Positions 9,476 to 39,878 of a stretch of 39,878 nt of DNA are shown here, piece after piece. The stretch's first letter is position 1, and each line of letters opens with the position of its first letter. The DNA is from Clostridia bacterium. GTDB taxonomy: Bacteria; CBDUZB01; JAGLHV01. The stretch spans positions 1 to 39,878 of the forward strand of contig DAOVVV010000024.1 of NCBI GenBank assembly GCA_030637025.1. The letters are read 5' to 3'. Position numbers and translations under genes: made by a program. Under the pieces are notes generated by a model. It was not told the origin of the DNA. It worked only from the letters and a program-made list of their open reading frames with translations, and searched no databases.

Positions 9476-9478
9476 ATC

Positions 9479-15167: not shown

Positions 15168-15168
15168 T

Positions 15169-19950: not shown

Positions 19951-19997
19951 TAATAAATTCCCTTAATTTATGCGATTTAAAAAGACTCATCACATAC

Positions 19998-24138: not shown

Positions 24139-24723
24139 TTATTTTTTTTCTGATTTTTGCACCAATAATTCTTTTGCCTTTTTTTCATCCATTTGAGATT
24201 CCCCCCCCTGATTAACCTTTACATACATAGCAGAGCGTAAAATGTAAAGATCAGCATTTTCAGGCTCAATCTCAATTGCTTTGTTTATCACTTTAAAAGC
24301 ACGGTCAGTTTGTTGTAATGCCATATAAGCACTCGCTTTTTTCATATAAGCGTAAATAAATTGTGAATCAGAAGAAATAAATTCATCACAAACAGATATG
24401 ACCTTGTTATAGTAATCAAAACTATCAACCCGTTTTATATCTTCCATACCGTTTTGCCTGATTATACCTTCTACCCATTTTTCATTATACTCCTGAGATT
24501 TCTTATAATTTCCTAATTCATTGTAAAGTTTTGAAAGGTCACAATAATAATCAATACAATAAGAATTATCTATAGAAATTTCAGCCAGTTTTAAACAAAA
24601 ATTTATTTCTTTTTCTAAAGGAGACTTTTGTTTTAGAAAAGAAAACCTTTGATTGCAACCAAAAAGAAAAAACAATAAAACGAAACCAATTAATAACCAT
24701 ATGCGAACTAAGTGTTTCATCAA
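24139..24723 (-). CDS. TPR-repeat lipoprotein
   Basis: Lipobox LFGC after hydrophobic signal; TPR-like AYMKKASAY...KAIEIEPENADLYILRS; AAGGAGG RBS. Confidence 0.75.
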   Translation of the reverse strand: MMKHLVRIWLLIGFVLLFFLFGCNQRFSFLKQKSPLEKEINFCLKLAEISIDNSYCIDYYCDLSKLYNELGNYKKSQEYNEKWVEGIIRQNGMEDIKRVDSFDYYNKVISVCDEFISSDSQFIYAYMKKASAYMALQQTDRAFKVINKAIEIEPENADLYILRSAMYVKVNQGGESQMDEKKAKELLVQKSEKK

Positions 24724-24850
24724 TAATATTCCTCCTTTTTTGATTTTCTTTGTCTCTGTTTCTATTAACTTCTCTTTTTACTGTAGTCTTAAAACTATTT
24801 TATTAATACCCCTCTCTCCGTATCTTTGTCTAAATAATAACATATTAACC

Positions 24851-25372
24851 TGTTTTTGTCCAATATCCATACATTGTTCTACTGAAATAATAGAAAAATT
24901 TATTTCCGGGTTTGAACCTCAAACCAAATGCAACATTCACCAGAGTTACCAAATCGATATACGTAATGGCTTACTTGCCGGAAAAAATTGTCCAAAGGAA
25001 TTCGTCACAAGCCGGGTATACGAAATTTATCCTGCACTTTACAACAACTGGGTGGCTAAACAATGTATCCCTCGTCCTTCTCAAAGATTCTCCAATCTCA
25101 GAGAAGAAAAACCAGCTTCTTTGTCTGATGAAGACACTCTTTATATTGCTTTTCCTGACGAAGGAGATATTTTTTGTATCTACCCCGTTTTAAGACTGGA
25201 ATATCAGACAATCTCACTTAAAGAGGTAATACCAAAGGGAATAAAAAACCTAATTTAGAATCAACCCTGCCATTTGAAACAGAGTGGCAACTTATAAGAG
25301 GGAAACACCCTTTTAGCTTTTCCTTAAAAAAAGAAAAAATAAAAACTAATCCGGTCAGAATCCAAGTTTTTT
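24851..25372 (+). pseudogene. pbpC: 3' remnant of penicillin-binding protein 1C gene, frameshifted
   Basis: Frame 1: CPIS..C...EKFISGFEP..C..H...IDIRNGLLA...CP...YEIYPALY..W...IAFPDEGDIF...LRLEYQTI. From 25261 a second frame gives PFETEWQLIRGKH...PVRIQV. Both resemble the PBP1C C-terminal region; no start codon or catalytic domains. Confidence 0.7.
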
Positions 25373-25485
25373 GGATACAATTAGCACACTTTTCGCCTAT
25401 TTTTATCAATCACCTGTTTTTTTTCTATTCTATTCTGAAATTTAGAAAAAATAGATAGTCACTTTTAAAAAATCATTTTTTCAGC

Positions 25486-26049
25486 TCAAACAGGAATACA
25501 CTTTAAATGTTTTTTCGACTCTTCAACAATATTCCAAAGTTTTGAATTATTTATCTTTGTTTTTGATTCATTACGAGGTTGATGTCCATCTTCAATGATT
25601 AAAAACCCGTCTTTTTTTAATAAACGATGTAATTCTTTCAAAAAAGAAAGAGGGGTTTTAATCATATGAAACATATCTAAGGCATAAATCATATCAGCAA
25701 TATGAGCATCAATCTTACAAAAATGCCCATTTGCTAACACCGGCACAACATTTCCTAAATCGTATTTTTCTATTTTCTTTTCTACCGACTTTATTGCTAA
25801 TTTATGAATATCTACAGCATATACCTTGCCTTTTTCACCGACCAAACCAGATACTTTTTTTAAATGCCTTCCGGGACCACACCCATAATCTATTACCGTG
25901 AATTTTTTTTTAATCCCAAAGCCATCCATTCGTTTATCAACCGAAGAAAAAAAATCTAATAGTTTAAAACTAAACGACATCATTATAAATGCTATATCAG
26001 GCATCCGTTCCATCTTGTTTCCACAAAAATATTTTTTAAAACCTATCAA
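25486..26049 (-). CDS. Class I SAM-dependent methyltransferase
   Basis: VIDYGCGPG, VYAVDIH, ELHRLLKKDG. Confidence 0.88.
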   Translation of the reverse strand: MIGFKKYFCGNKMERMPDIAFIMMSFSFKLLDFFSSVDKRMDGFGIKKKFTVIDYGCGPGRHLKKVSGLVGEKGKVYAVDIHKLAIKSVEKKIEKYDLGNVVPVLANGHFCKIDAHIADMIYALDMFHMIKTPLSFLKELHRLLKKDGFLIIEDGHQPRNESKTKINNSKLWNIVEESKKHLKCIPV

Positions 26050-26063
26050 TTAAACCTCCTCTT

Positions 26064-26633
26064 TTAATTTTTTTCTTCTATATATTTAAACCGGTAATTC
26101 GCTTTGGACATCTTCCCAAATAACATTTCCTCCTGGATAAAAACAGGAGAATTATCAATAAGTTTAGAAAGCCCCTCCCAAAAACCAAACCATCCTAAAG
26201 GCATAAGAATAATACTCAAAATATCAAGAGTAAGAACATTTAAAAATTTTAAATAAGTAGCCATAGTCAAAAAACTTAAAGAACAGATTCCCACAAGAAC
26301 AAATATTACTCCCCGGATACGAAGACGGGTAATCCTTTTTTTCTTTTGTAAAAACATATGAAAAAAATGTTTTTTTAATCGCTGTCTAACCATTCGTTCC
26401 GATTCTTCATTTTTTAAAGCCACGGGAGAATAAATGGTAATGAAAAAAGAACCTGTCCGGGTTTCCCGATAACGCTTTTTCAGTTCTTCAATGAAATCCT
26501 CTGATACTGTACGCATACTTAATGGCCTGGGATCAAAATCCGAAAAAACATCATCCCATGTATCAATTACAATAGCAATTTCTTTCAGGTCCTTTATTCT
26601 TTGTCCTCTTGTCTTTTCATTATTTTGATCCAT
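26064..26633 (-). CDS. Conserved hypothetical membrane protein (2 TM)
   Basis: IDTWDDVFSDFDPRP..RTVSEDF motif, two C-terminal TMs ending GWFGFWEG; AGGAGG RBS. Confidence 0.75.
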   Translation of the reverse strand: MDQNNEKTRGQRIKDLKEIAIVIDTWDDVFSDFDPRPLSMRTVSEDFIEELKKRYRETRTGSFFITIYSPVALKNEESERMVRQRLKKHFFHMFLQKKKRITRLRIRGVIFVLVGICSLSFLTMATYLKFLNVLTLDILSIILMPLGWFGFWEGLSKLIDNSPVFIQEEMLFGKMSKANYRFKYIEEKN

Positions 26634-26740
26634 ATATTAAATCCTCCTGATAATAAATTTACTAACAAAGAAACAAGAGACAATATTTTTTTCATAAATA
26701 CCCGAACTATCCCTATTTTCAAACTTCAAAAAACAAATAA

Positions 26741-26776
26741 AATACCCCCGGAATAAAAAGCTTTTCCGGGGGTATT
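26741..26776 (-). terminator. Intrinsic terminator after porin gene
   Basis: Perfect 13-bp stem AATACCCCCGGAA / TTCCGGGGGTATT followed by a U-rich tract on the minus strand. Confidence 0.9.
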
Positions 26777-26796
26777 AATTTTCCATATGAATTGTC

Positions 26797-28152
26797 TCAG
26801 AAAGTTACTTTCATTGAACCAATGATTCGATAACCAGTAGTATCATTAATCTCATTAAAAGTAGCACCCGCCAAATACACCCCGGTATTTAAGCCAAAAG
26901 TAACCTCTTTATTATAAGCATACTGAAGGTCTAACTCCACGAAATCACCTAAATGTTCTTCATTTTGGAGAATATAAACTCCATAAACTCCAAAAAGAGC
27001 AGTCCCTTCCAAAGGTTTCTTATCCCAAAGATAATGAGTATATCTTATATTAGCAGTAAGATCTTTAACCGGTTTGAGCTGAGTAATAATATGCATAAGA
27101 TGAGCATTACAAGGAGCAACCAGGGCGTTATCCAGACTTCCACCTCCCTGATTTTCACACATTATATCCCAGGCAGTATAGTCCCCTCCCAGATCCCCTT
27201 CTTGTTCCCCGGAACGATAATTATAAAGTAGAGTTATCGACGGAAGCAATTTAATAGGGGTAAGTAAGGTTGCAGAAATATCTGTCGCCCAGGCATCTCT
27301 GTCCCCCGGAAAATGGTATGTTGACAATACACTATTTGCCAATCCCCCGGGAAAATCTCCGGTTTGATGAGCTATTTCTGCCTGAAGAACAAAAGGCAGT
27401 GTTGGTGAATCAGGAGCAAAGTTAGGGCCAAAACTACAACGAAAGCCAACAGTGTTTACTTTATCTTTAAAAAGAGCTGCATCTTTGCCTGTCTCTTTAA
27501 CAAAATAATAAATTTCACTAAGAGCATTGTTTTCAGAAAAATTATAACGAAAATTAACTCCATAAAGATCTACATCGTCTTCAAGATTCACACTATTCCC
27601 TTCACTAATTTGTGCATAAAAAGGGTCAATAACTATAGGGGCCAAATCAATTGTTGCCCGGATAGCATCAAAAGCTTTACGTTCACTTAAATCTATAGCA
27701 TTAATCGCAGTAATGTTTGGACTAAAAAATACTAATAAATTCGTATCCGGATCACCAATAATCATAGCATTACCAAAAACTAATTCCTGACGGCCAATTA
27801 TTAAATCTAAAGGAGAAAAAAGAATTTTCTTCAAAGTGACATACGCTAAATCCAAATCAATATCGGTACTCTGGCTATCAGAAGCACTTACTTCTAATCC
27901 CCAATCCCTTTCGTTAAGCAGTCGCACTGTTGCAGTCACATCATCGGATAAAGCAGCATCTAAGCGTAAGCGTACTGTTGACATCCACCACGAGCCCCCA
28001 ATATTTCCGCTTCTAAGATCAAGGCTTTCATGATTTATTGCACGGATATTAATATCCCCGCTAACCTTAATCTTCTCACCTTCAGAGTATGCAGTAAAGG
28101 TAATACCAAAAACAAATAAAACTGTTAAAATTAATATCCAACATTTATTCAT
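26797..28152 (-). CDS. Outer-membrane beta-barrel protein (alginate-export/AlgE-like porin)
   Basis: Signal peptide, alternating beta-strand pattern, DLDLAYVTLK..LIIGRQELVFG..FDAIR motifs, C-terminal Phe. Confidence 0.8.
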   Translation of the reverse strand: MNKCWILILTVLFVFGITFTAYSEGEKIKVSGDINIRAINHESLDLRSGNIGGSWWMSTVRLRLDAALSDDVTATVRLLNERDWGLEVSASDSQSTDIDLDLAYVTLKKILFSPLDLIIGRQELVFGNAMIIGDPDTNLLVFFSPNITAINAIDLSERKAFDAIRATIDLAPIVIDPFYAQISEGNSVNLEDDVDLYGVNFRYNFSENNALSEIYYFVKETGKDAALFKDKVNTVGFRCSFGPNFAPDSPTLPFVLQAEIAHQTGDFPGGLANSVLSTYHFPGDRDAWATDISATLLTPIKLLPSITLLYNYRSGEQEGDLGGDYTAWDIMCENQGGGSLDNALVAPCNAHLMHIITQLKPVKDLTANIRYTHYLWDKKPLEGTALFGVYGVYILQNEEHLGDFVELDLQYAYNKEVTFGLNTGVYLAGATFNEINDTTGYRIIGSMKVTF

Positions 28153-28329
28153 TTATATCCCCCTTTTTTGTTTTTTTTAATTTAACTGCTTTTAAAATCT
28201 CCAAATGAAATTTTATTTTACGTTCACCCCCTCTTTTCATTTATTTTTTTTCTTAAATAATTAATCACCCTCTAAAACTAACAAAGAATCTCTTAATTGT
28301 CAAGACTAAAAAAACATTTCTTTTGTTAT

Positions 28330-28998
28330 TTATTTCTGAATTTCGACCAATGTGTCAACTGAAACTAATTCAAATAACTCAATCACCTCTTTATTTTTCA
28401 TTCTTACACACCCATGTGATGCCGGTGTCCCAATTAATCCTTCTTCCGGTGTTCCATGGATATAAACATAACGCTTTAATGTTTCAAGATTAATACCTGA
28501 TTCTAATCCTTTTAACCACATTATACGGGTAGTTACAAAATCCTCAGGAACATCTGTCTTGTCAATATAAATTTTAGCAATTTTTTTCGTATTTTTACGT
28601 GCTTTAAAAATTGTCCCAATCTTAGCTCCTTCTCCATGTTTGGAAGCAATATAGTGGGTACCTAAAGGAGTCTTATTGCTTCCCGGTTTGCTGCCCACTC
28701 CGTATTTAGAAGTGGAAACAGGGTAGGTTTTAATAATTTTTTCATCTTTGATAAGATAAAGTTTTTGTTTGGAAATACTTACGATAATCGCAAATTGATC
28801 GGACTTAAGATTAAATTTTACTTGTAGTTTTTGCAAAATTTTCTTTCGGTTTAAAATATTTTCTTTAACAATTGCATTATCTGTCAAAGTTTCATTTTTT
28901 TTCTTAACTTCACCTTTTAAACAACTCACAATAGAAAAAGAAATAATTAAACAAATTAATTTCATTCTTATTCTTCTTTTTATAGTCTCTATATCCAT
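28330..28998 (-). CDS. L,D-transpeptidase (YkuD family), possibly a lipoprotein
   Basis: VSISKQKL, YPVST, TPLG, IHGT...PASHGCVRM catalytic motif; IVSC lipobox-like. Confidence 0.92.
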   Translation of the reverse strand: MDIETIKRRIRMKLICLIISFSIVSCLKGEVKKKNETLTDNAIVKENILNRKKILQKLQVKFNLKSDQFAIIVSISKQKLYLIKDEKIIKTYPVSTSKYGVGSKPGSNKTPLGTHYIASKHGEGAKIGTIFKARKNTKKIAKIYIDKTDVPEDFVTTRIMWLKGLESGINLETLKRYVYIHGTPEEGLIGTPASHGCVRMKNKEVIELFELVSVDTLVEIQK

Positions 28999-29201
28999 AA
29001 AAAATCTCCTTTTTTTTAACCACTAGATAAATTTTTCAATTTTTTAGTTAAACTTTTACCAACGCTCTACATTTCTATTATGCCCATAATTCATTTATTA
29101 TAATAATAATAAAGCTTCATAGATGTTTTCTATTCTACTTTTATAAATCAACTGCCCCTCAGCAAGCTATAGGCCCTTCGACTACAGAGTTTTTAATTCA
29201 G

Positions 29202-29744
29202 CTAACATTCAAAAGCTGTTATTAACCCATCACTCTCCCCTATGGGAGGAAAAACCTCATCAAAATAGATTTGTTCTCTTGTTATAATATTTTTAAGGTG
29301 ATTACACAAACACTTTATGCATAATGAATCACCTTTATACTCCGAATTCATATTAAACTTATATACATCGCGAAAATAAACTTCCGGGGAACACCAAAGA
29401 AAACGAGCTGATCGGCCACAATCGCAATGTCTTTTTATTCTTGAAATTAAAATCTTCATTTTTTCAATATCTTCTTTCCTAAAATTATACTTTTTCATTT
29501 GCTGAAAGCTATAAAATTGATAAGCATTAAGAGGTTTAAACGGTTCTACTACTATTGCTTTATATTGGAAAAAATTTAAATATTCTTTGTATTTTTCCAT
29601 AAAACAGGAAGTACATAATTTTAATCGTTCACCTTGCTTATATAATCTGCGATAAGTCGCATCAAAAAAATGATATTTATTTTTTTCTAAAGGAATATAA
29701 CACCTTTCACATCTTATTTCCCTCTTACCAAAAAAATTAAACAT
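29202..29744 (-). CDS. Hypothetical Cys-rich protein
   Basis: CxxC-type motifs (CERC, CTSC, CDC, CIKC); AGGAGG RBS. Confidence 0.75.
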   Translation of the reverse strand: MFNFFGKREIRCERCYIPLEKNKYHFFDATYRRLYKQGERLKLCTSCFMEKYKEYLNFFQYKAIVVEPFKPLNAYQFYSFQQMKKYNFRKEDIEKMKILISRIKRHCDCGRSARFLWCSPEVYFRDVYKFNMNSEYKGDSLCIKCLCNHLKNIITREQIYFDEVFPPIGESDGLITAFEC

Positions 29745-29764
29745 TTTTGTTGTAAAAACCTCCT

Positions 29765-30118
29765 TTATAATTGGAAAGATTGCTTAACATAATAGGCAAC
29801 TTTTTTCTTTTTAATATCCTCCGGTTTAAAGATTTTTAAATGCCGTCTTAACTTTCCGCTTCCTTCCAGAAAATTATCCGAATCCTGAAACTCTACCCCC
29901 CTATCAAATTCAACAGATATATGATTTCTCCGAACAAAGATTCCGCAAAATAATCTCTTATCTCCTATAAAAACCAAACCACCGTATTTTATTTCTTCTT
30001 TTATTTTATAAGCTATTTTTAAAACTAATTTTCTTAAAGAAATCACCATCACTCCTTTGTCCTTATCAATAAGCATTATATCCTGTATAAAATTATCAAT
30101 CTTAGGATTTGTTTTCAT
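29765..30118 (-). CDS. DUF1801 (YdhG-like) domain protein
   Basis: EEIKYGG, LEGSGKLRRHLK motifs. Confidence 0.85.
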   Translation of the reverse strand: MKTNPKIDNFIQDIMLIDKDKGVMVISLRKLVLKIAYKIKEEIKYGGLVFIGDKRLFCGIFVRRNHISVEFDRGVEFQDSDNFLEGSGKLRRHLKIFKPEDIKKKKVAYYVKQSFQL

Positions 30119-30215
30119 ATTTTATCCTTCCTACTCTAATTTTTTATCGATAACAAATTTTTCCTTTTTCCCCAAGCAATAACTCATCTTAGTTCTTCAC
30201 CCATTCCCTCTCTTA

Positions 30216-30245
30216 TCTAAATCTAATCTTCTTTTTCTGTCATTT
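30216..30245 (-). repeat. Putative recombination-site repeat (degenerate copy)
   Basis: Minus strand AAATGACAGAA-AAAGAAGA-TTAGATTTAGA; spacer 7/8 identical to the 36257 copy. Confidence 0.45.
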
Positions 30246-30794
30246 AATGCCTTCCTTTATTCCCTGTGTATCTTGATTGATATAAGCTTCAAATTTAGGC
30301 CAAAGCACCTGCTTTGCCCAATCCCATTCACCGGTATCTTCAATGCGTCCGACTCTTTTATCTGAGTCTGCCTGCAGCCAGGCAACATATATTGTAGAAG
30401 TTCCGGCTATAATTGCAATTTTAACAATTTCAGAAGAAAAAAATTGAAATTGATCTTTTTGGCCAAAGCGTTCAAATCGAGCAAATGCCTGCTTTTTTTC
30501 GATTAATTTCCACCCATTATTCCCAGCCTTCTGAAAAATTTCAGACAGAACATTATCTATAGATTTTGAGCTGCCCCCAATAGTGTATCTAAAAATAAGA
30601 GCGTCGATATCCTGATTCCCATAGAGACCTTCCACCAAAATATCGTCTATTACAAATTCAGGTAATATCCGGTTAATCTGTTGTACCGTAGGTACATAAT
30701 TCATATCCAAATATTTAATACTAAAAAAGAGTAATATTAGTATTAACACCACACTTAAAAGACAGATTAACCCTCTAAAGTTTCGTAATTTCAT
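30240..30794 (-). CDS. Hypothetical membrane-anchored protein
   Basis: 184-aa ORF with N-terminal TM. Confidence 0.75.
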   Translation of the reverse strand: MKLRNFRGLICLLSVVLILILLFFSIKYLDMNYVPTVQQINRILPEFVIDDILVEGLYGNQDIDALIFRYTIGGSSKSIDNVLSEIFQKAGNNGWKLIEKKQAFARFERFGQKDQFQFFSSEIVKIAIIAGTSTIYVAWLQADSDKRVGRIEDTGEWDWAKQVLWPKFEAYINQDTQGIKEGIK

Positions 30795-30811
30795 ATTCGC
30801 TCTTTATTTGC

Positions 30812-32083
30812 TCATATTTTAATTTTTTTCGGCCAGGGTTCTTTCATAGCAATAGACCAAACTTTATTGATATAGTTCAACATAAAATAATTTTGGGCTA
30901 AATGTATCCAGAAAGATCCGCTTTCGGTAAGAGAAAATTTTTTATCCTTTTCCTTGAGTAATTTTAATATTTGAAACAGTTTTATTGTTTTTAATACCTT
31001 TTTATCTTCCCCAAAAACATCCTTTATTTGTCCTCCATAAAAATAGGTCTCATATAATTTCCAATAAAACCAATAATATTTTGATAAAGAAGGAGTAATA
31101 TCCATTTTCACAGATATAGGAAGTTTGTTGCCTGATAAAGTTTTTATGTATTGGTCCACAGAAAAAGTATTTAGGTAAAACATATTAGAAAAATTCGATC
31201 CTGCCCCTGCACCAATCCCTATGTAATATTCCCTGGTAACCGATGAATATCTGGGGCTATCCCCTTTTTTAAATCCCCATACTGAAACCCTATTAAACCC
31301 TTTTTTTAAAAGATAGTTATGAATTTTTCTATATACTTTCCTTCTGGTAAAAATATTAGGCATTTTAATTTTCTTAAGTTTTAAATACTGTCCTACGGAA
31401 GAATAGGGAAAAGTAAAAAGAGGATACATTGTTATTTGATTAATATTTAAATTTATAGCTTTATCTAAATCAAACATAACATCGGTTATGCTTTGTGCCG
31501 GCAAAGCAAACATTAAATCCAGATTTACCGAATTAAAATTTGCCAGTTTGGCAACTTCTATTGCCGAAAAAATGTCTTTTGCCTGATAATTCCTACCCAG
31601 AAAACAAAGATGTTTATCCTTGAAACTTTGAACTCCAATACTGATTAAGGTAATACCATCTTTCTTTAATTTTTGAATCGTAGATTTATTTACATCGGAA
31701 ATACTTGTTTCCAGGCAAATATCTCCGACAACTGTGAATTTTTCTTTTATTGCTTTTAAAATCACACTAAGTTCATCAATCAGGTTAGTGGGAGTACCTC
31801 CACCAATATAAACAGAAGAAATTTCGATTCTTCCCAGTTTTTCGTAATAAAGCTCTATCTCTTTTAAAACAGCACCTAAATAAGGGTTCACCAGATTTTT
31901 ATCATATTTTATTTTATTATAAGCACAATACGGACACATATTTTTACAAAAGGGAATATGAATATATAATCCTATCCTTTTGGTTGGTAAAAATTGTATT
32001 TCATTTACTTTTTTAAAAACAAACTCTTGCTCTTTACCTACCAGGTATCGCCTTAGTGTTTTAGTTAAGAAATTAATAATCAT
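30812..32083 (-). CDS. HemN-like (class C) radical SAM enzyme, MenK/MqnK-like
   Basis: LYIHIPFCKNMCPYC, YIGGGTPT, SIGVQSF, DLMFALP, QITMYPLF, YIGIGAGA, YLNTFSVDQY. Confidence 0.85.
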   Translation of the reverse strand: MIINFLTKTLRRYLVGKEQEFVFKKVNEIQFLPTKRIGLYIHIPFCKNMCPYCAYNKIKYDKNLVNPYLGAVLKEIELYYEKLGRIEISSVYIGGGTPTNLIDELSVILKAIKEKFTVVGDICLETSISDVNKSTIQKLKKDGITLISIGVQSFKDKHLCFLGRNYQAKDIFSAIEVAKLANFNSVNLDLMFALPAQSITDVMFDLDKAINLNINQITMYPLFTFPYSSVGQYLKLKKIKMPNIFTRRKVYRKIHNYLLKKGFNRVSVWGFKKGDSPRYSSVTREYYIGIGAGAGSNFSNMFYLNTFSVDQYIKTLSGNKLPISVKMDITPSLSKYYWFYWKLYETYFYGGQIKDVFGEDKKVLKTIKLFQILKLLKEKDKKFSLTESGSFWIHLAQNYFMLNYINKVWSIAMKEPWPKKIKI

Positions 32084-32084
32084 C

Positions 32085-33008
32085 CTAACCCCTGGGTAAA
32101 TAACTTAAAGCTAAAAAAATAGCACTCGGCTTTAGTTTTAAAATATAAATAATCTCAGGATATCCGAGATAGCCACAGTTTTTACAAGCAATCTCATTTC
32201 CCAGAGCACGACAACATTGATACAGTTTATTATTGGCGTATACATAACATATTTTGGACGGCCTCTTCCAACTATCATTAGCAACAGCTTTTAAACAAGC
32301 CGTTGAATTTAATATTTTATATCCTTTATTTTTTAAAGCAAAAATCCTTTCAATGATTTTTCTTTTTTCTTCCATATCCAGAAAAAGCTCATCGTATCCA
32401 TAATACGGAGTATGAAAGTAAAAGAAAATCCCTTTAATTTGTTCAATATTGGTTATTTCATCACAAAACTTTTCAATTTCATTTTGATTTTTTTTGTTTA
32501 TGGTAAAATTTATGATGATATTGGGATGACTTGATTTTTTTATATTACGCAGAACTACATCATAAATATTTTTTCCATTTCCACGCAATTCATTATTGGT
32601 TTCTTTTAATCCATCTAAACTCACAAAAACAGAATCAGTCGATACTTCAATGGGAAATGTTCCATTGGTATAAATACTTACTAAATAAAATCCAATTCCT
32701 CTGGCCAGTTTTACAACATCATTCAGTTTATATTTTCCATCTCGCCAGAGAAAAGGTTCCCCTCCCTCAATAAAAACAGACCTGATTCCTTTATCATGAA
32801 ATATTTGTAACCCTTTACCAATTTCCTCATATGATAAATCGGGAATATTTTTTCTGTTGGCAACATCACATTGTTTACAATTAAGATTACAATTCTCATT
32901 AATAACCAAGCCGCCTATAAAGGGTATTTCTTTACCCAATATCTTTGTCCTTATAAAATAACTTATCGCGTATAAAAAGTATTGTACTTTTTTAAATATA
33001 GTTTTCAT
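32085..33008 (-). CDS. Radical SAM protein with C-terminal Cys cluster (Twitch/SPASM-like)
   Basis: CNLNCKQC, EGGEPF, TNG, VSLDG; C-terminal C...CCR...CKNC. Confidence 0.9.
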   Translation of the reverse strand: MKTIFKKVQYFLYAISYFIRTKILGKEIPFIGGLVINENCNLNCKQCDVANRKNIPDLSYEEIGKGLQIFHDKGIRSVFIEGGEPFLWRDGKYKLNDVVKLARGIGFYLVSIYTNGTFPIEVSTDSVFVSLDGLKETNNELRGNGKNIYDVVLRNIKKSSHPNIIINFTINKKNQNEIEKFCDEITNIEQIKGIFFYFHTPYYGYDELFLDMEEKRKIIERIFALKNKGYKILNSTACLKAVANDSWKRPSKICYVYANNKLYQCCRALGNEIACKNCGYLGYPEIIYILKLKPSAIFLALSYLPRG

Positions 33009-33090
33009 ATTATAATCTTAATAATAAAATCCATCTTAGGGTTGCAAATATAACCAATTCTCTATTTTTATTAGACATTTAAATTTTACA

Positions 33091-33759
33091 CTACTCCCCT
33101 ATATTAATTTTCTTCATTTTAAATATGTTTTTAAAATAAACCCAGTGCCACGATATATGAAATATGGAAATGACAAACATCGCTATCCCGGTTTCTACAT
33201 GCCAAAACAAAATATCAAAGGGCAAGGGGATAATTATGCCTAAATTAACTTTAATAATTAATAGAACCCCTGTTATTCCTGAAAATAAAAAGGTAAGGAG
33301 CAGTAAACAATTCCAAATTCTTCTATGGTTTACCAGCTTTATAATTTTTTTTCTGGATAGAATACAACCAAATAAATATAAAAAAACTAAAACTAATGAT
33401 ATGGGCAACAAATGATAAATTCGTTTATGCCCCCTATTCCTTTCCTCTACCCCGATAAGCTGAGTATTTGATTCCAATGATACATCAATATCAGTGACCA
33501 CTTTTGTTTCTAATTCTTTGTTCTTTTTTAAATGGTCACCATCATTTATTATGATTTCGCTATTAGTGAAATTACTCTTTCTATCTTCCGGTGCCGGCTG
33601 CGAACGGTCACAAATCCCATCATTGTCTGTATCAATATATCTTCTACAATCACCAGGATAAACATCATTAATTTTACCTAAAGGACAATCATCCCAGGCT
33701 AATCCTATTATGGGAATTAAAATAAACAATAACAAAGTAAAGATTATTTTTTTTATCAT
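33091..33759 (-). CDS. DUF4405-like membrane protein with N-terminal Cys/DxDxDG motif
   Basis: Signal peptide, WDDCP..DVYPGDCRRYIDTDNDGICD, three TMs with WHVETG..FHISWHW histidines. Confidence 0.72.
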   Translation of the reverse strand: MIKKIIFTLLLFILIPIIGLAWDDCPLGKINDVYPGDCRRYIDTDNDGICDRSQPAPEDRKSNFTNSEIIINDGDHLKKNKELETKVVTDIDVSLESNTQLIGVEERNRGHKRIYHLLPISLVLVFLYLFGCILSRKKIIKLVNHRRIWNCLLLLTFLFSGITGVLLIIKVNLGIIIPLPFDILFWHVETGIAMFVISIFHISWHWVYFKNIFKMKKINIGE

Positions 33760-33818
33760 AAAATTATTAGTTATAAAGTAATATAACTTCCTTTCTTGTT
33801 TTTTTGCAATATATTGTG

Positions 33819-34265
33819 TTATCTGCTGTTTTGGGCTGATTTATCTATTTTTTTTATCACTTCATTTAATTCTTTTCTGGAACTTATATTACATTTAGAA
33901 CCTATCAACTCCACCGCTTTTTGATAGGCATGCTCACTTTTTTCCTGCTGATAAATTCTGTTATATACTACAAATAAACGACCATACGTCAAACCTAAAT
34001 CATTGATAAAAATATTATAATTTGTGCTTTGAGGATCTAGCGTCTTTTTGTAAGATTCCAATTTGTCTATAATGAAATTTAAAGAAATTAAAGATGAATT
34101 AATTTCACCTGTTTGGTACACTTTGAAAGCTAATTCTTCGCACTGGACAAGATTTTCCAATTTCGCTCTTTGTTTATTGTAAAATATGACCTTAGCCCAA
34201 AAAATACTTACACCCACGCCACCAATTATTATACCAATCATTATAAATACTAACTTTTTTTGCAT
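33819..34265 (-). CDS. Hypothetical membrane-anchored protein
   Basis: 148-aa ORF, N-terminal TM, helical/TPR-like tail. Confidence 0.7.
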   Translation of the reverse strand: MQKKLVFIMIGIIIGGVGVSIFWAKVIFYNKQRAKLENLVQCEELAFKVYQTGEINSSLISLNFIIDKLESYKKTLDPQSTNYNIFINDLGLTYGRLFVVYNRIYQQEKSEHAYQKAVELIGSKCNISSRKELNEVIKKIDKSAQNSR

Positions 34266-34333
34266 AATTTTATCTTCTTTTTTAAATTTCTAAACCCTTT
34301 TTGTTGTGTCATAAAAAGAAATCTCCTTTAAAT

Positions 34334-34774
34334 TTAACGTCCACCAATAAAACTTTCCTTAGGAATAAATAATCGATATTTTTTATTAAAATCATTCCCA
34401 TTTTTTGTCCAAATTAACATAGGAACTTCAAGAGTCACCCCATTATCTTCCCAAACTACCTTTGCTCTTTTTAATTCTTCCCCCTTGATATACTTATTAT
34501 AGTAATCATCAAAATAATTCATATGATAGCCATAATCTCCTCCATCTTTATATAACTTATCGTTAACAATTTTTATTTTTAATCGCGTTCTTAAAGTCTC
34601 TTGTTCTTTTACAACAAGCAAACAATACGGGTCAAAAGAATTATAATTAATCCCTATCGGCTGAACTGATTTAAATAAGACTTTTTGCGACCAAGAAATT
34701 CCAATCATCTGTGTCACAACTAAAAACAACAAAATGAAAAGGGCAATACCGGTTAATATTTTATTTGTTTTCAT
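34334..34774 (-). CDS. Hypothetical membrane-anchored protein
   Basis: 146-aa ORF, N-terminal TM, ends LFIPKESFIGGR. Confidence 0.72.
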   Translation of the reverse strand: MKTNKILTGIALFILLFLVVTQMIGISWSQKVLFKSVQPIGINYNSFDPYCLLVVKEQETLRTRLKIKIVNDKLYKDGGDYGYHMNYFDDYYNKYIKGEELKRAKVVWEDNGVTLEVPMLIWTKNGNDFNKKYRLFIPKESFIGGR

Positions 34775-34860
34775 GATTTATATACTTCCACCGTGTCGTA
34801 TCAACAACTTAATGTATCACTATCAAGTAATAAATTGTATTCAATAAATTAATTATGTTT

Positions 34861-35154
34861 TTATTTTAATGTATCTGTTATATCAAACCAATATTTGTGC
34901 ATTTCTTTTAAAAAGTCTTTATCATCTACAGGGAATCCGGATTTCTTTCCGATAACTGAATCAATACCACATTTGGGGCATAAAGCCGTTTGTCCTATAT
35001 TATTTTTATCCTCATCAACCCATTCCTTAATTTCGGATGGGAAAAAAATTGCTTTACAATAAAAACAACCACATAATTTACTTTTAAATATTTCTTCTTT
35101 ATGTATTGAAGAATGTTTATGGGCATCTTCTAATATTGTTTTATCTATTTTCAT
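34861..35154 (-). CDS. Conserved small Zn-binding protein
   Basis: CGCFYC...TALCPKCGIDSVIG...LKEMHKYWF. Confidence 0.85.
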   Translation of the reverse strand: MKIDKTILEDAHKHSSIHKEEIFKSKLCGCFYCKAIFFPSEIKEWVDEDKNNIGQTALCPKCGIDSVIGKKSGFPVDDKDFLKEMHKYWFDITDTLK

Positions 35155-35308
35155 TCTGTTTTTTTTAAACTTATATCGATTATAATATCCTGCTACTTAT
35201 ACTGAACTGCTACTTCATAAAATTTGCCATCAATCTCTGTTACTAATAAAACATATCCCCTCAGCCTCAAATTTTACATTTATATCCTGATAGATATCCT
35301 CTTTTTTG

Positions 35309-35860
35309 CTATTTTCTTGTTAGCTTTTTATTATACTCATCTATTTCTTTTGATAACTCAAGGATATCATTAAATCCATTCTCTTTACAGTATTCTGACA
35401 AATAAGAATTTTCGCTTATTTTATCTAAATACCATCCGAAGTTTGATACCTCTTCAAGGGAAAGTGTTTTTGCATTAAAATATGCATAGGCCATAAGGTC
35501 AAGAAAATTTAATAATTTATCAAATTTTTGGTAATATTCTGAGTATTGCAAAATATTTTTCTGATCAAAATTTTCATACAAAGTTTTAATGTTTATTTCC
35601 GAATGTCTATTCTCCAGAATTTTTATTGCTTCACCCAAGACATTATCTGTATCCAGTAATTTCGCCTGTTCAAAAATAAATTCTGTTCTCCTCCAGGCTA
35701 ACTCCCGGTTTCTGGTATCAAAATACTTCCACAATCCCCAGATCGCTACTAGCAATGTTGAAACAACCTGCCAATTACTTTCCAATAACACTAACATTAT
35801 TACTATTCCCAACATTAGAATAATCTGCCGTTTATTTTTTAACAAAAAATCCTTCATCAT
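35309..35860 (-). CDS. Hypothetical membrane protein; start reassigned to MMKD at 35860
   Basis: The called start (35899) overlaps the ykgJ-like gene; GAGGTG RBS precedes the ATG at 35860. Confidence 0.7.
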   Translation of the reverse strand: MMKDFLLKNKRQIILMLGIVIMLVLLESNWQVVSTLLVAIWGLWKYFDTRNRELAWRRTEFIFEQAKLLDTDNVLGEAIKILENRHSEINIKTLYENFDQKNILQYSEYYQKFDKLLNFLDLMAYAYFNAKTLSLEEVSNFGWYLDKISENSYLSEYCKENGFNDILELSKEIDEYNKKLTRK

Positions 35861-35867
35861 TCTCTTT

Positions 35868-36221
35868 TCACCTCTTTCGTTTTTGTTTTGTATACGCATC
35901 TAACTCTTCCGGTGAGGAAATTATTTTATCATACCATTGCCCGGTCATTTCACAGGAATCCGATTTATGCTCTCTACATACTTCAGGCCTGCGGTCATAT
36001 ATTTTACAAAGATTAGTATCGGATAAATACATACACTTCCCCTTAATTAACAAATACCACCGACGACTTTTAATATATACTTTTACCGTATCAAAATGTA
36101 ATTTCCACCGCAAATCATCAATTTCAGCAATATTTCTTGGTTTTGTCATCGGAACAGCTAAGTTTCGACAACAAATTGCTTCACATTCTTTACATACATC
36201 CTTTTCTTTAACAATCATCAT
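35868..36221 (-). CDS. YkgJ-family (CxxCxxCC) cysteine-cluster protein
   Basis: CKECEAICC...CMYL....CKIYDRRPEVCR; AAGGAG RBS. Confidence 0.88.
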   Translation of the reverse strand: MMIVKEKDVCKECEAICCRNLAVPMTKPRNIAEIDDLRWKLHFDTVKVYIKSRRWYLLIKGKCMYLSDTNLCKIYDRRPEVCREHKSDSCEMTGQWYDKIISSPEELDAYTKQKRKR

Positions 36222-36256
36222 TTCTCCTTTATAATTCCCGAACTTTACCCCTATTA

Positions 36257-36292
36257 TTTAAACCTAATTTTCTTTTCATGTCAACAATATTA
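36257..36292 (-). repeat. Putative recombination-site repeat, strong copy
   Basis: 30/36 identical to 39666-39701; core TGTTGACATGA-AAAGAAAA-TTAGGTTTAAA. Confidence 0.6.
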
Positions 36293-36347
36293 TATTTCCC
36301 CTATTGACTCATTTATACCTCTATAAATCTCTTCACTTTTTTACCCT

Positions 36348-36368
36348 TTTATGTCAACTATTTTAACT
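36348..36368 (-). repeat. Half-site copy of the same repeat
   Basis: tttatgtcaactattttaact is 19/21 identical to 39684-39704. Confidence 0.55.
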
Positions 36369-36406
36369 TTTTTGCTTTAGTTTTTACCTATTCTAAAATA
36401 CCTTTA

Positions 36407-37141
36407 TTATTTAATAGCAACCAATACTTTAATCCATTCAAATTCAGGCAGGGGTTTAATTGTAATTTTTTGAAATTTAACCTTTTTACATATATCCTTC
36501 CATTGTTTAAAGCTTATGCAATATTCACCATCATTTAAAATATGTTTTTTTCCATTGTCATACATACGTTTAAAGGCATCTATGCCCCCTTCTTTTAGGG
36601 CAAGAGCGAATTCTTCTTTTAAACAATCAATAATCCTTAATAAACGTCTTGGATCTCTTAGCTTTCCGGTAGTATCCATATCAATGTCTCCTAAAATGAA
36701 TTTTCCCCCGGGTTTTAATATACTACGGATTTTTCTTAATACCGGATATTTATACTTTATATGATGCAGGGTTACCGTTGAAGCAACAATATTAAACGAA
36801 TTCTTTTTAAAACCAAGAGAGGTACTATCTTCAAGTTTACAGGTAATACTGTCATTTAAAGATAATTTTTTGATTTTATCTTTAAAGATTGAGAGCATCT
36901 CCGGTGAATTATCTATAGCTGTAATAAAACAATCAATCTTTTTAAGGAATTTTAAGCTTAAAAGCCCGGTACCACAGCCAATATCCAATACTTTATGATT
37001 TTTTTTAACCGCTGAGAGATTAACAACAAGCTCAAGTAATTTATGATGTCTTTTAATTTTACCCAGAGTTTTATCGTATTCATTAGCCCATTCTTTGAAC
37101 CATTCTTTAGTAATTTTATTTGTCTTTTTATTTTTCTTCAT
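36407..37141 (-). CDS. Class I SAM-dependent methyltransferase
   Basis: VLDIGCGTG, AIDNSPEML, TLHH, LKPGGK; AGGAG RBS. Confidence 0.9.
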   Translation of the reverse strand: MKKNKKTNKITKEWFKEWANEYDKTLGKIKRHHKLLELVVNLSAVKKNHKVLDIGCGTGLLSLKFLKKIDCFITAIDNSPEMLSIFKDKIKKLSLNDSITCKLEDSTSLGFKKNSFNIVASTVTLHHIKYKYPVLRKIRSILKPGGKFILGDIDMDTTGKLRDPRRLLRIIDCLKEEFALALKEGGIDAFKRMYDNGKKHILNDGEYCISFKQWKDICKKVKFQKITIKPLPEFEWIKVLVAIK

Positions 37142-37167
37142 AATTTATAGATCTCCTATACTTAAAT

Positions 37168-37452
37168 TTATCTGTTTTTTATCTTAAACATCAATTTTTC
37201 TGAAAAAACACCAAAACCAAATAGACCAATAACGATAACAATATCTATTATTTTTCTAAATAAATTATTGCTTGCCATAAAATCCCCGAACAATGCTACC
37301 GGCCAAACTAAAGAAAAAATTAAAGTTAATAAAATTGTAGGTAAATCCATTGATAATACCTCTGGATCGTTTAACCAAACTAAAAAAGCAATAAGATTAA
37401 AAAAAATAATCCCCCATAAATATGAAAAAAATAATATTTTTATTGTCTTCAT
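37168..37452 (-). CDS. Small hypothetical integral membrane protein (3 TM); likely start MKTIK
   Basis: Three hydrophobic segments; GAGGAG RBS upstream of the ATG at 37452. Confidence 0.65.
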   Translation of the reverse strand: MKTIKILFFSYLWGIIFFNLIAFLVWLNDPEVLSMDLPTILLTLIFSLVWPVALFGDFMASNNLFRKIIDIVIVIGLFGFGVFSEKLMFKIKNR

Positions 37453-37489
37453 CTTTTTCTCCTCAAAAAACACCACTTGCATTAATTTA

Positions 37490-37984
37490 TTAGCTAATCC
37501 CTTTTTTTAAAATATTTCTTATTTGTTTGAGTATTTTTTTAACTTTAGAATAATTGTCAGGACATTTATAAATGTTTATATCGTTCACTATTTTTTTAAT
37601 CTGTTCGTACAATAAAATCAATTGTTCTCTTTTCTCTAAAGTTTGCTTGCCAATTCTTTTAAATCTTTCGTCATCCGAATTGAAAGAAATCATATATTCG
37701 GAAAAATTACTACGGGCTTGATTTAGGGATATTTCATCATTAGCACCTCCTTTTTCCTCTGCGTCTGCATCATCCTGCCCATCATCCTCCCACCAACAAA
37801 TCTGACAAATTTCATACTCAATTCGTCGTTGGAGAGTTGGATAACCACAACATGGACAGGTGCTACGACTACGAATATCCATGGGAAGCAAATAAGTTAA
37901 AAATCTCCAGAAAGAACATCTATATTCAATATGCCTCCATTGTGCATCAAACCACCGTCTTCTATTTATTAGTTTATTATTCAT
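37490..37984 (-). CDS. Cys-rich CPCC-domain protein
   Basis: CPCCGYPTL...YEICQICWWEDDG...GGAN..ISLNQARSNF. Confidence 0.85.
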   Translation of the reverse strand: MNNKLINRRRWFDAQWRHIEYRCSFWRFLTYLLPMDIRSRSTCPCCGYPTLQRRIEYEICQICWWEDDGQDDADAEEKGGANDEISLNQARSNFSEYMISFNSDDERFKRIGKQTLEKREQLILLYEQIKKIVNDINIYKCPDNYSKVKKILKQIRNILKKGIS

Positions 37985-38416
37985 ATTAGTTTCCTCTACT
38001 CAAAAATTAGTAATGTCAAAAACATCCGGTAGACAAGAGCAAACAAAATAAACTCTAAATCTAACACATTAAAATCCAAACAATATTTAAATTCCCTGCT
38101 TATAGACTGTCGAACAGGTAACCCAAATACAAATTATCGAAAATTATTTTCATAATTATTACCCATACTTAATATACAAAATCAGCGAATAGATTTGTAT
38201 TCCTTCTCTTTCCTTTTAGGACAATGAATAACATACACTATCTAAAATGTTACAGTAAAACTATACCAGACGGAATTAATCCCTATCGAATTATTCTTTT
38301 TTCATTAGGTAAAATACATAGAGGCATTCTTTGATTCTCCCTATTATGAGAACAAATATTTTATTCTGGTTTTTCTTATCAACTTATTTATACTTTTATA
38401 AATGTATCTTTGTTTT

Positions 38417-39142
38417 TTAGTTGTGCTGATTTTTATTTATAAATTTAAAAGTAGAAATAATTTTTTCAATAATAGTATCATATTTTGTTTCCATACTTTT
38501 ATCTTTTGAAGACTTATGGAATTTAAACCGTTTCTTGTGAGCATAGAATTCAATAACTATTTCATCCGATATAGGGAGTAGATAATAAAAAACACCTTTA
38601 CCATAAGGACCAGGGTATCCAGGTAACTTTACAACCGTATACTTTCCAATATTAATATGAAATTTTTTCTTATTAAATTGTTTATTATAAAACTCGGCCT
38701 TTTTTCCAATATGAGGATGAATTGTTATGGAGGATATCTCTCCGATAGGTATTTCAGAAACAGGTATGTTCCCAATAAGTTTTTTTTCCACCAAAACAAT
38801 CATATTCTTAAAAGGTCTTTCAAATTCCTCCGGATCAAAGCCCGATTCTTTTAGTGATGCTCTAATGCCTTTTTCAAGTTGATGAATTTCTTCTTTGTAT
38901 TTACCTACAACAAAATTATGAGAATATTCAAATTCAAACCCAACTTTCTTATTTCGATAAGTTTGCCATTTACCGGTTTTGCTAATGCTATCTATCAAAA
39001 TTTTCTCTTTAGTCTTTCCCCCGTGACATATTTGTTGTCCATAAATTCCAACATCAAACACCATTATAACAATAATTAATGCACCGGAAAATACCGATAT
39101 ATTTTTTAAGTTTTGAATTAATCTATCGAGTTGTTTATTCAT
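38417..39142 (-). CDS. Hypothetical membrane-anchored protein with PsbP-related-like motif
   Basis: N-terminal TM, WQTYRNKKVGFEFEY, C-terminal IISTFKF. Confidence 0.72.
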   Translation of the reverse strand: MNKQLDRLIQNLKNISVFSGALIIVIMVFDVGIYGQQICHGGKTKEKILIDSISKTGKWQTYRNKKVGFEFEYSHNFVVGKYKEEIHQLEKGIRASLKESGFDPEEFERPFKNMIVLVEKKLIGNIPVSEIPIGEISSITIHPHIGKKAEFYNKQFNKKKFHINIGKYTVVKLPGYPGPYGKGVFYYLLPISDEIVIEFYAHKKRFKFHKSSKDKSMETKYDTIIEKIISTFKFINKNQHN

Positions 39143-39152
39143 AATGTTTATA

Positions 39153-39173
39153 CGAAAATAGCCTTTCGCTATT
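39153..39173 (-). terminator. Possible weak intrinsic terminator after trmO
   Basis: AATAGC-GAAAG-GCTATT hairpin followed by TT. Confidence 0.45.
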
Positions 39174-39175
39174 GT

Positions 39176-39643
39176 TCATTCTCTATCTGCTGGTTTTGGA
39201 CGCAATTCTTTTATTTCAACCCATCCGTTGTTTGCGTTAATAAAATGATCAAATTTTGGTATATAAGGTTTAATATCAATAAGAGGCGTATTATCAAGAA
39301 TATCTATTCCACTTACTTCCAAAACATTTCCATTTCTTTTTAGAAGCTTTACTATGGAAATTCCAACCCCATTGGGTCTACAAGGATGTCGTGAGGCAAA
39401 AATTCCATGAGAGCAATCATCCAGAAAAGTAGGCCGTACTAATTTAATTTTTCCTGCCTGGTTGAAAATATAAAACAGTATGATATGAGAAAAGGTTTCA
39501 ACATCTTTTAATCCTTTTTCATACTCCGGAAATATTTCAACTTGTCCTTTTTCCTGAGTATTTATAGCACCCTGGATTGGACACTCTTCTTTTATCTTAT
39601 ATGGAGTATGAATAATTCCAATTGGTTTTATTTCGTATCTCAT
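39176..39643 (-). CDS. trmO: TrmO/TsaA-family tRNA methyltransferase-like protein (UPF0066)
   Basis: KPIGIIHTP, PIQG, GIFASRHPCRPNGVG, DILDNTPLIDIKPY. Confidence 0.88.
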   Translation of the reverse strand: MRYEIKPIGIIHTPYKIKEECPIQGAINTQEKGQVEIFPEYEKGLKDVETFSHIILFYIFNQAGKIKLVRPTFLDDCSHGIFASRHPCRPNGVGISIVKLLKRNGNVLEVSGIDILDNTPLIDIKPYIPKFDHFINANNGWVEIKELRPKPADRE

Positions 39644-39665
39644 TTTATTTTTTGTTTCCCCTCCT

Positions 39666-39701
39666 TTTCAATCTAATTCTCCGTTTATGTCAACAATATT
39701 A
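39666..39701 (-). repeat. Putative recombination-site repeat, strong copy
   Basis: Core TGTTGACATAA-ACGGAGAA-TTAGATTGAAA; 30/36 identical to 36257-36292. Confidence 0.6.
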
Positions 39702-39733
39702 ACTCCATCCTTGTTTCCTACTGGAGCAAACCA

Positions 39734-39877
39734 TTACTTTTCAGCAACAACCAACATCTCAAAATCTTCTGTTGTAAGTTTATCATTTCTTGAGAAGGCT
39801 CCGAGTTTTGCTCCATAAATATCAATCTTTTTAAATTCGAGTGATTTTAATAGCCATGTAATTTCAGAAGGAACATA
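39734..39877 (-). CDS. 3' end of a gene entering from the window edge, probably a SAM-dependent methyltransferase
   Basis: Open frame YVPSEITWLLKSLEFKKIDIYGAKLGAFSRNDKLTTEDFEMLVVAEK*, resembling a class I methyltransferase C-terminus. Confidence 0.7.
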   Translation of the reverse strand, partial: YVPSEITWLLKSLEFKKIDIYGAKLGAFSRNDKLTTEDFEMLVVAEK

Positions 39878-39878
39878 A

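Follow-up and report, generated by a model that had tools for sequence, protein, structure and literature searches.

The cer site has two arms 8 nt apart, the attC sites of integrons carry boxes of the consensus RYYYAAC/GTTRRRY and stay with the gene upstream of them, and operators of the MerR type are palindromic. The pdif sites of Acinetobacter copy the arms of the chromosomal dif site around a 6-bp spacer and alternate in orientation around gene modules; for the dif modules, which have a site of opposite orientation at either end, recombination has been observed solely where the two spacers are identical or nearly identical (PMC13141974). That promoters are reused before non-homologous genes is a concept already in print (PMC3575422). 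Here we describe a family of repeats, the S elements, in a 39,878-nt stretch of DNA (contig C51, DAOVVV010000024.1; hereafter the window) from the 2.36-Mb genome of an uncultured Clostridia bacterium (G000; assembly GCA_030637025.1, 97.8% complete, 17% intergenic). An earlier note on the window had read three full sites, S1, S2 and S3, as Xer-type 11-8-11 recombination sites delimiting excisable gene modules. We found these sites to be the cores of a longer, non-coding repeat of approximately 90-100 nt, purine-rich on its sense strand and present in 3-4 copies per genome, and the reading that we tentatively place first is that S is a reused promoter-like upstream module which travels with the gene downstream of it.

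The genome was compared with those of three sister species of the same genus (G001, G002 and G003) and with metagenome contig sets from Logan (X5 to X8; four studies of cold-seep and marine-sediment runs, at least 90% likeness), in which related populations have approximately 92% identity to the window. The term S element denotes the longer repeat around each site. R1 is a sequence-only covariance model that was built from six S copies and run over the four genus genomes, a score of over ~20 bits being taken to indicate a clear copy. The features concerned are the following.

39634..39732 (core 39666-39695), minus strand: S1, upstream of a TrmO-like gene; 62.2 bits with R1, training member
36224..36310 (core 36257-36286), minus strand: S2, upstream of a CxxCxxCC-domain gene; 46.8 bits with R1, training member
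30182..30270 (core 30216-30245), minus strand: S3, ~100 nt upstream of a DUF1801 gene; 44.8 bits with R1, training member
36312..36402 (earlier half-site at 36349-36359), minus strand: tandem partial copy; 10.3 bits with R1, E 0.02, outside the training set
38050..38085, minus strand: possible decayed copy, AATATTGTT ... TTAGATTTAGAG, upstream of a CPCC-domain gene, recognised by eye
19372..39878, minus strand: window part of a variable island, with mosaic similarity to G001, G002 and G003 and single-gene differences

Read on the minus strand, the cores are TGTTGACATAA-ACGGAGAA-TTAGATTGAAA in S1 (39695-39666), TGTTGACATGA-AAAGAAAA-TTAGGTTTAAA in S2 (36286-36257) and AAATGACAGAA-AAAGAAGA-TTAGATTTAGA in S3 (30245-30216). 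These three strings, and the further three that had been quoted at 36359-36349, 38064-38054 and 19352-19342, were all exact. The sites had been placed at gene junctions in the orientation of the genes, and this holds for S1, S2 and S3, which are intergenic or at gene ends; the left part of S3 overlaps the last codons and stop of an open reading frame (ORF) at 30240-30794. To the left of their cores S1 and S2 share another 15 identical bases (TAATATTGTTGACAT), and there is a shared extension of approximately 40 nt, whilst alignments of the copies displayed an AGGGG/GAGGG run downstream of the core and, further upstream and common to several copies, a block of the form ACArGGAyGGrG. From 5' to 3' on the gene strand, the element consists of the ACArGGAyGGrG-form block, the AT-rich AATATTG, TTGACA or a near variant, an A/G-rich segment of 7-10 nt, TTAGrTTTrrATA and a run of G (AGGGG). 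Indels of 1-2 nt separate the copies, and the right half of S3 is a short tandem (TTAGAT TTAGAT). The copies lie 20-220 nt upstream of an ORF, in sense orientation and before unrelated genes. Of the 27 junctions between genes in the window's share of the island, only 3 have an S element, which is hence not a general feature of these junctions. A structured RNA was also considered as a candidate and rejected, since no Rfam match was obtained across 19-40 kb of the window (E<=1) and the RNAalifold consensus of S contained 0 pairs. Downstream of S3, a tiny ORF starting ATGGGTGAAG encodes MGEELR* in G000 (window 30200-30225) and MGEVL* in G003 (L014, ~2655-2680), and is absent from G001; it could have arisen by chance or encode a leader peptide.

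The likeness of S1 and S2, identical at 30 of 36 bases as had been claimed, proved to be real. Elsewhere in the genome neither of them has a match better than 25/36, and BLAST paired the two at E=2.7e-4 genome-wide, this being the top non-self match of both. Matches of at least 30/36 were taken to mark true repeats, since 19 of 150 random intergenic 36-mers have a non-self match at this level. A pattern drawn from S1-S3 matched three times in the window, against 0.20 expected from 100 shuffles, and these are its only matches in the whole 2.36-Mb genome; such counts are not independent evidence, since the pattern was defined from the three sites themselves. A 61-nt profile of S1-S3 likewise retrieved nothing else in the genome below E=1. 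The three sites were connected with one another by BLAST and ungapped counts, and remained unconnected in single-sequence nhmmer searches at the default filter settings. In a scan of 1420 upstream regions with a two-block matrix (gaps of 6-11), S1 (28.1) and S2 (33.3) beat all 1399 non-island regions, for which the maximum was 20.5.

The case of S3 is divided. In sequence it is borderline, at 21-23/36 to S1 and S2, which is within background, and with a BLAST value against S2 (E=0.004) that is equalled by unrelated places; in position it has counterparts in G001 and G003, and it is counted as a member mainly because an S-like sequence stands at the same place upstream of DUF1801 in these two species. 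The half-site at 36359-36349 turned out to belong to a real tandem partial copy next to S2. This copy was scored by R1 without having contributed to it, it aligns with a better-preserved S-like copy at the same place in G001, and GTTGACAT[AG]A, which occurs nine times in the genome, has three of its occurrences within 3.4 kb here, one of them in the tandem copy.

The weaker copies that had been listed near 30129, 34289, 34777, 35164 and 37994, and the lone arms at 38064 and 19352, could be assigned to background. All scored at most 5 bits with the family model with its filters off, and the same model reaches 8.5-9.8 bits inside core genes (for instance, 9.8 bits at 14715-14747). In the matrix scan the weak sites ranked in the top 6-33%, and the 18 island regions, the three training-gene regions being set aside, had best ranks in the top 5-33% and were not enriched relative to the 1399 non-island regions (Mann-Whitney p=0.08 sense, 0.60 antisense). 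The arm TTAGATTTAGA occurs 11 times in the genome. The caveat attached to the weak copies at the time, that they might be chance, is thus borne out by both scans. The possible decayed copy at 38050..38085 contains the identical lone arm 38064-38054; it was missed by R1 and by the matrix scan and is without statistical support.

In the sister species, S-like copies were recognised by eye upstream of DUF1801, at the S3 position, in G003 and G001; in front of both a metallophosphoesterase gene and the CxxCxxCC gene in G001; and, in G003, upstream of a homologue of the window gene 33091-33759, which in G000 has no S. The genes behind S are unrelated, namely TrmO-like, CxxCxxCC and DUF1801 genes in G000, a metallophosphoesterase gene (assigned by Pfam) in G001 and a gene for a 222-aa protein without a Pfam family in G003. 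Over the four genus genomes R1 returned its six training copies at 45-63 bits and, beyond these, only four matches: the S3 counterpart of G001 (22.7 bits), G001:C136 (20.3), G000:C34 (19.3) and G002:C50 (15.4), the last being weak and apparently coding. The training copies and the match on G001:C185 are on contigs that share blocks with the island, and the G001:C136 contig shares sequence with the island head only. Clear S copies are all located on contigs sharing sequence with the island, and in this genus alone. Within a 62-kb island set, BLAST paired S2 with a G003 copy at 91% over 23 nt, with an E of 3.6e-4.

Outside the genus, no S was present upstream of the CxxCxxCC homologues (46-68% identity) at 11 metagenomic loci of other genera, and a 27-nt pattern of the 5' half of S gave 0 matches in JGI metagenomes. 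A 25-nt core pattern searched across GTDB had at least 119 single matches in scattered, unrelated taxa; when 80 of these loci were scored, the genus's own copy reached 59.7 bits and the others 9-20 bits, which is chance level. The core of S evidently arises easily by chance in AT-rich DNA, given that its GTDB-wide matches are so scattered.

Several further S-like stretches were observed. Outside the island, G000:C66:53758-53792 has the best non-island matrix score (20.5), and the R1 match on G000:C34 (3173-3212) reads TTGACA-N11-TAAAAT and is followed by hairpin repeats. A short piece, AAGTATAAATAAGTTGATAA... (window 38357-38418; L013 3042-3089; L014 3657-3720), stands after different genes in G000 and in G001/G003, and is similar to the 5' flank of S2 at 82% over 33 nt. 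Behind this piece, G003 has another S-like stretch (TGGACATAGAAGGGGAGTTAGGTTCGAATAAA), which precedes a gene for a 303-aa protein.

The proposal that S1, S2 and S3 are the core sites of a tyrosine recombinase, either XerCD or an unlinked enzyme, with direct repeats delimiting excisable modules such as 36257-39666, has some features in its favour. Like dif, cer/psi, pdif and the sites of integrative mobile elements exploiting Xer (IMEX), the S cores are short, asymmetric, intergenic sequences with inner ATAA...TTA letters, and the host has both XerC and XerD. The sites faintly resemble the dif of this genome, the 8-nt middle of S1-S3 is that of cer, the dyad between the arms (6/11 in S1 and S2) is equal to that of dif itself, and the gene array in which the sites lie is truly variable. 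The comparison with the genome's own dif, which had been suggested as a check, nonetheless came out against the proposal. A canonical 11-6-11 dif, ACGTCCTATAA-TATATC-TTATGTTAACT, is located at G000:C72:11002-11029, and its 23-nt core is single-copy and identical at 23/23 positions in all four genus genomes. Each of S1, S2 and S3 matches the arms of this site at 11/22, a level that is attained by 19,765 of the 720,198 intergenic 11-8-11 frames (the top 2.7%), and the S arms, unlike dif, drift between positional counterparts: the right arm of S3 is TTAGATTTAGA in G000, GCAGGTCTGGA in G001 and TAAGGTTTGAA in G003. Nor is the spacing fixed. S1-S3 and the G001:C2 copy have their arms 8 nt apart, one G003 copy has them 7 nt apart, and for the counterparts of S3 in G001 and G003 this distance is 10 nt, whilst similarity extends far beyond the arms into the ~100-nt repeat. 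With arms so far from dif, variable spacing, copies that are all direct repeats and spacers that differ at 3 of 8 positions between S1 and S2, S is unlike the pdif sites of Acinetobacter and the spacer requirement of their modules (PMC13141974).

Site-specific recombinases identified in G000 comprised two tyrosine recombinases only, XerD (362 bits, cut-off 329.6) and XerC (337 bits, cut-off 335.15); no serine recombinase and no integron integrase was found in this assembly, and at a completeness of 97.8% a further recombinase gene may have been missed. Another dif-like site, carrying two mismatches, was observed in G000 only, on a 9.4-kb contig (G000:C68:6589-6611); it could be part of an Xer-exploiting element or of a small replicon.

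The positions at which gene content changes also avoid S. Resolvable breakpoints were found in the contigs at 39722/39721, 36386, 37173, 37461/37999 and 30145/30788, the others being at ORF edges. The expectation that breakpoints map to the 8-bp spacers failed amongst those resolvable in contigs and sister species: none was located in 39677-39684, 36268-36275 or 30227-30234, in contig data from which rare forms would be missed. Amongst the joints listed for the X5-X8 contigs, which drop rare forms, there was likewise no joint between the S1 and S2 regions. Instead, S is kept whole with the gene downstream. An X8 contig without the upstream methyltransferase gene retains S2 and its tandem copy in front of the CxxCxxCC gene, and S3-like copies stay with DUF1801, in 3 of the 3 species for which that junction is assembled, though the upstream gene differs. 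Two observations do lean towards recombination at S. The 5' edges of S1 (39722/39721) and the G001:C2 copy lie exactly at synteny breaks, and in both G000 and G001 a pair of S-like copies encloses a gene set that differs between the two species, although the genes on either side are the same. Both would also be seen if S were simply the leading conserved stretch of the unit to which the downstream gene belongs. Taken with the off-dif arms, the variable spacing and the longer repeat, the retention of S with its downstream gene renders the Xer reading very unlikely.

A role of S in transcription start or in the function of the 5' leader is suggested by its sequence. In G000, 354 of 858 TTGACA hexamers are intergenic, though intergenic DNA constitutes 17% of the genome, and 157 of 353 intergenic TTGACA are followed by TAnnnT at a spacing of 17 or 18, against ~5% at other spacings; TTGACA is the -35 hexamer of this genome. 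S1 and S2 carry TTGACA and S3 carries ATGACA at the corresponding place, with TTGACA, TTGATA, TTGACG and TTAACA in other copies. AT-rich DNA precedes the hexamer, and a TrrATA-like block follows the TTGACA at 17-20 nt, succeeded by the G run. If the module acts as a promoter, transcription would be expected to start in the G run, ~7 nt past the TrrATA block. On this reading S would be copied between island genes by duplication or short-homology recombination, would be reused as a promoter-like module that moves together with the gene behind it, and would act in transcription start or as part of the 5' leader. A described parallel is that of the reused or mobile promoters (PMC3575422), which similarly consist of highly similar upstream sequence before non-homologous genes of one genome, with a consensus -35; S1 and S2 share 83% over 36 nt before the non-homologous TrmO-like and CxxCxxCC genes. 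Unlike those promoters, S has a promoter activity that is only predicted and a non-canonical -10, and its family is confined to one island and one genus.

A number of observations weigh against a promoter. The earlier remark that the TTGACA of the sites lacks a good -10 was confirmed, as there is no TAnnnT at spacings 16-18, where the hexamers are TTGAAA/TGAAAA/GAAAAG in S1, TTTAAA/TTAAAT/TAAATA in S2 and TTTAGA/TTAGAT/TAGATA in S3; the TAGrTT block, at spacing 12, is unenriched genome-wide (24/353, background). The -35-like hexamer is not retained in every counterpart, being ATGACA in S3 of G000 and TAGTCG/TAATTG at the S2 position of G001/G003, and G001 and G003 have a separate TATAAT near the DUF1801 start. 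The S3 region is no better conserved than its own spacer, with 78% mean column identity throughout. Moreover, a profile of the three G000 sites alone scored the copies of other species at 14.0 and 13.6 bits and missed both G003 copies; given how weak this profile is elsewhere, the cross-species family rests in part on a model built from copies picked by eye.

Of the alternatives to a promoter-like module, the one that we consider next in probability, although still unlikely, is that the copies are functionless paralogous remnants, left behind by segmental duplication or by short-homology recombination as the island gained and lost genes. They would then have been kept because they are young or lie in slippage-prone, low-complexity, purine-rich spacers, and would serve at most as passive homology patches. 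The family is indeed tiny and local, S1 and S2 within G000 are closer to one another than are the S3 counterparts between species, and a tandem partial copy adjoins S2. The short tandem within S3, the small indels between copies and the lack of conservation of the S3 region above its flanks fit this explanation too, as do nearby microhomology deletions (8 letters at 37461/37999 and, by eye, TTTAAAT at a G003 junction). Remnants would not readily explain why copies before different genes in different species keep the G run together with the TTGAyA and TAGGTTTAAATAA blocks, why S2 and the G003 copy remain so alike over 23 nt, or why orientation and upstream position are constant in all copies. 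An operator through which a regulator co-regulates several island genes appears less probable again, and we regard it as rather improbable. Conserved blocks at a roughly fixed distance before several genes, together with the non-canonical promoter geometry, would suit an operator, and genes of the MerR and HU families are present next to tRNA-Pro at the island head (G000:C13:2495-3140). However, the dyad between the arms is weak (6, 6 and 3 of 11, where 6.9% of intergenic frames reach 6), the distance between the blocks is anywhere from 7 to 10, the spacer is rich in purines and lacks the palindrome expected of an operator of the MerR type, and no regulator is linked to the S copies themselves. 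Likenesses to sites of extracytoplasmic function (ECF) sigma factors, IHF and FNR/CRP and to MerR operators were weighed by eye only, and were dropped as none fitted more than one copy.

Recombination sites follow at the low probability already indicated, and least probable of all is pure chance, that is, AT-rich spacers picked by eye. The background level of the weaker copies and lone arms, the position of S3, taken alone, within background and the abundance of 25-nt core matches across GTDB genomes would all agree with chance. It is refuted for S1, S2 and the tandem copy, in view of the 30/36 likeness against a genome maximum of 25/36, the matrix scores of S1 and S2 above every non-island upstream region and the recurrence of copies at the same positions in sister species, and stands for the weak copies.

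The island in which S occurs continues across the assembly gap into G000:C13:1-2300 and ends at a tRNA-Pro(GGG) gene (C13:2308-2384). A class-I methyltransferase gene is split by the assembly between C13:2-121 and window 39737-39877. Along the gene strand the order is the core genes ispH, rpsA, a PD40 protein gene and the HU-like and MerR-family genes, then tRNA-Pro(GGG), small genes, the window from 39878 to 19372, and lysS with further core genes. The real-looking genes of the window all lie on the minus strand, and those called in its island part do so bar one short, doubtful plus-strand ORF (24701-25258). Variation within it was resolved at the following places.

30146..30787, minus strand: segment without counterpart in one X8 contig, comprising a 184-aa ORF and S3; 113 other letters stand instead
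36387..37172, minus strand: segment without counterpart in another X8 contig, comprising a 244-aa methyltransferase gene; 87 letters stand instead
37462..37998, minus strand: segment without counterpart in the X8 contig that also lacks 36387-37172, comprising the CPCC-domain gene
39734..39878, minus strand: 3' end of the class-I methyltransferase gene, a hot spot of context variation

The X8 joints have 255 letters on the shorter side at 30145/30788, 180 at 36386/37173, where S2 and the tandem copy are kept, and 62 at 37461/37999, where the 8 letters that fit either side constitute a microhomology. The segment 39734-39878 was found in 6-8 contigs per metagenome run, at a summed depth of 92-657. 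From 39722/39721, where G000 has S1, contigs of X5, X6 and X7 join the methyltransferase gene to G+C-richer sequence of the G001:C2 kind, and G001 has two diverged copies of the end of this gene, with 88% and 96% identity to the window. The sister species have many island ORFs in common at 78-92% identity, and differ in content. In G001, 36237-39732 of the window is replaced by 6 kb of other genes, and the 97-aa gene and the alginate-export gene are absent; both G001 and G003 are without the radical-SAM pair and have a 303-aa gene in its place. These differences, by single genes or small groups in sister species and metagenome populations, support the earlier description of a co-oriented, gene-variable array. 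Much of the apparent breakage at every ORF edge is similarity lost in spacers at this divergence, and spacers aligned directly between species were homologous throughout. In G003 (L014, C375, 5027-5216), a homologue of the window methyltransferase gene 36407-37141 is truncated, and is joined at TTTAAAT to the right part of an S-like element before the CxxCxxCC gene; the common TTTAAAT makes this look like a microhomology deletion.

As in other tRNA-linked flexible islands, the variable set lies directly downstream of a tRNA gene, here tRNA-Pro(GGG), and ends at a core gene, lysS. Unlike them, it has neither an integrase gene, none having been found in the island, nor a direct repeat of the tRNA 3' end, and it varies by single genes and not by one large insert. 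A tRNA-att island was rejected, as no repeat of the tRNA-Pro 3' end is present in the island.

Co-oriented, small, unrelated genes that vary gene by gene are also characteristic of integron arrays and of clusters of attC sites lacking integron integrases (CALINs), the subject of the IntegronFinder papers (PMC4889954, PMC9024848). No integron integrase (TIGR02249) scored over its cut-off in any of the four genus genomes, whilst in the positive control it did so in 5 of 37 unrelated genomes. In the window, no attC-like inverted repeats were present among the 25 longest of 242 pairs (28.0-39.9 kb), and no attC-like hairpins were visible in the 27 spacers of its island part. S itself is unlike attC in having no pairing and in being linked to the gene downstream. 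The window part of the island is not an integron. The island head is different in that some of its spacers (G000:C13:1276-1916; G001:C2) contain sequences resembling the RYYYAAC/GTTRRRY boxes (GCCTAAAC...GTTAGGC; GCCTAAC...; ...GTTAAGC). Folding of these candidate sites was no better than that of shuffles (z -0.84 to +0.79), and a box-plus-stem attC scan was unspecific, with 108 matches genome-wide, and missed them. The IntI-adjacent loci of two unrelated genomes were short and had no clear repeated sites. A unit encoding a 99/105-aa protein does occur in two contexts, at L076 (G000:C13) 844-1320 and L016 (G001:C2) 5576-6036, with identical ends, starting at GTTATCGG and finishing at TTTTACTG, and with attC-like boxes just upstream in both. 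To judge from these boundaries, it looks like the product of integron-type cassette traffic, with weak hairpins and no IntI found in the four genomes.

Elsewhere in the window, its core part (9475-9987, 10818-10974 and 11593-15699) contains an RNase P RNA (182 bits), two tRNA genes and a clpC-mcsB-mcsA-like row, and adjoins Lol-type ABC genes and an alginate-export-type outer-membrane protein.

Sites of the Xer type would have meant a cassette system that is chromosomal, is not an integron and lies outside the plasmids of Acinetobacter, which would have been a real surprise; the evidence argues against it. A caution follows for similar searches, as AT-rich 11-N-11 motifs picked by eye easily resemble dif, to the degree seen here in 2.7% of intergenic frames. 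A more far-reaching proposal, and to us an improbable one, is that each S element forms the portable 5' end of a gene unit, as a conserved ~100-nt promoter and short homology anchor for exchange of single genes or small modules independently of a recombinase. If true, genes from the pool of this genus would be swapped into an island that is linked to tRNA-Pro and has lost its integrase, and the synteny breaks at the 5' edges of S (39722/39721; G001:C2 versus G000:C13) would mark where exchanged DNA starts. S is in any case a documented instance of an upstream module reused before unrelated genes. The island itself, in an uncultured cold-seep and sediment bacterium, differs gene by gene between close relatives, with no integrase seen and only traces of attC-like junctions, and is a reasonable place in which to study the origin of gene-sized variation in the absence of a dedicated recombinase.

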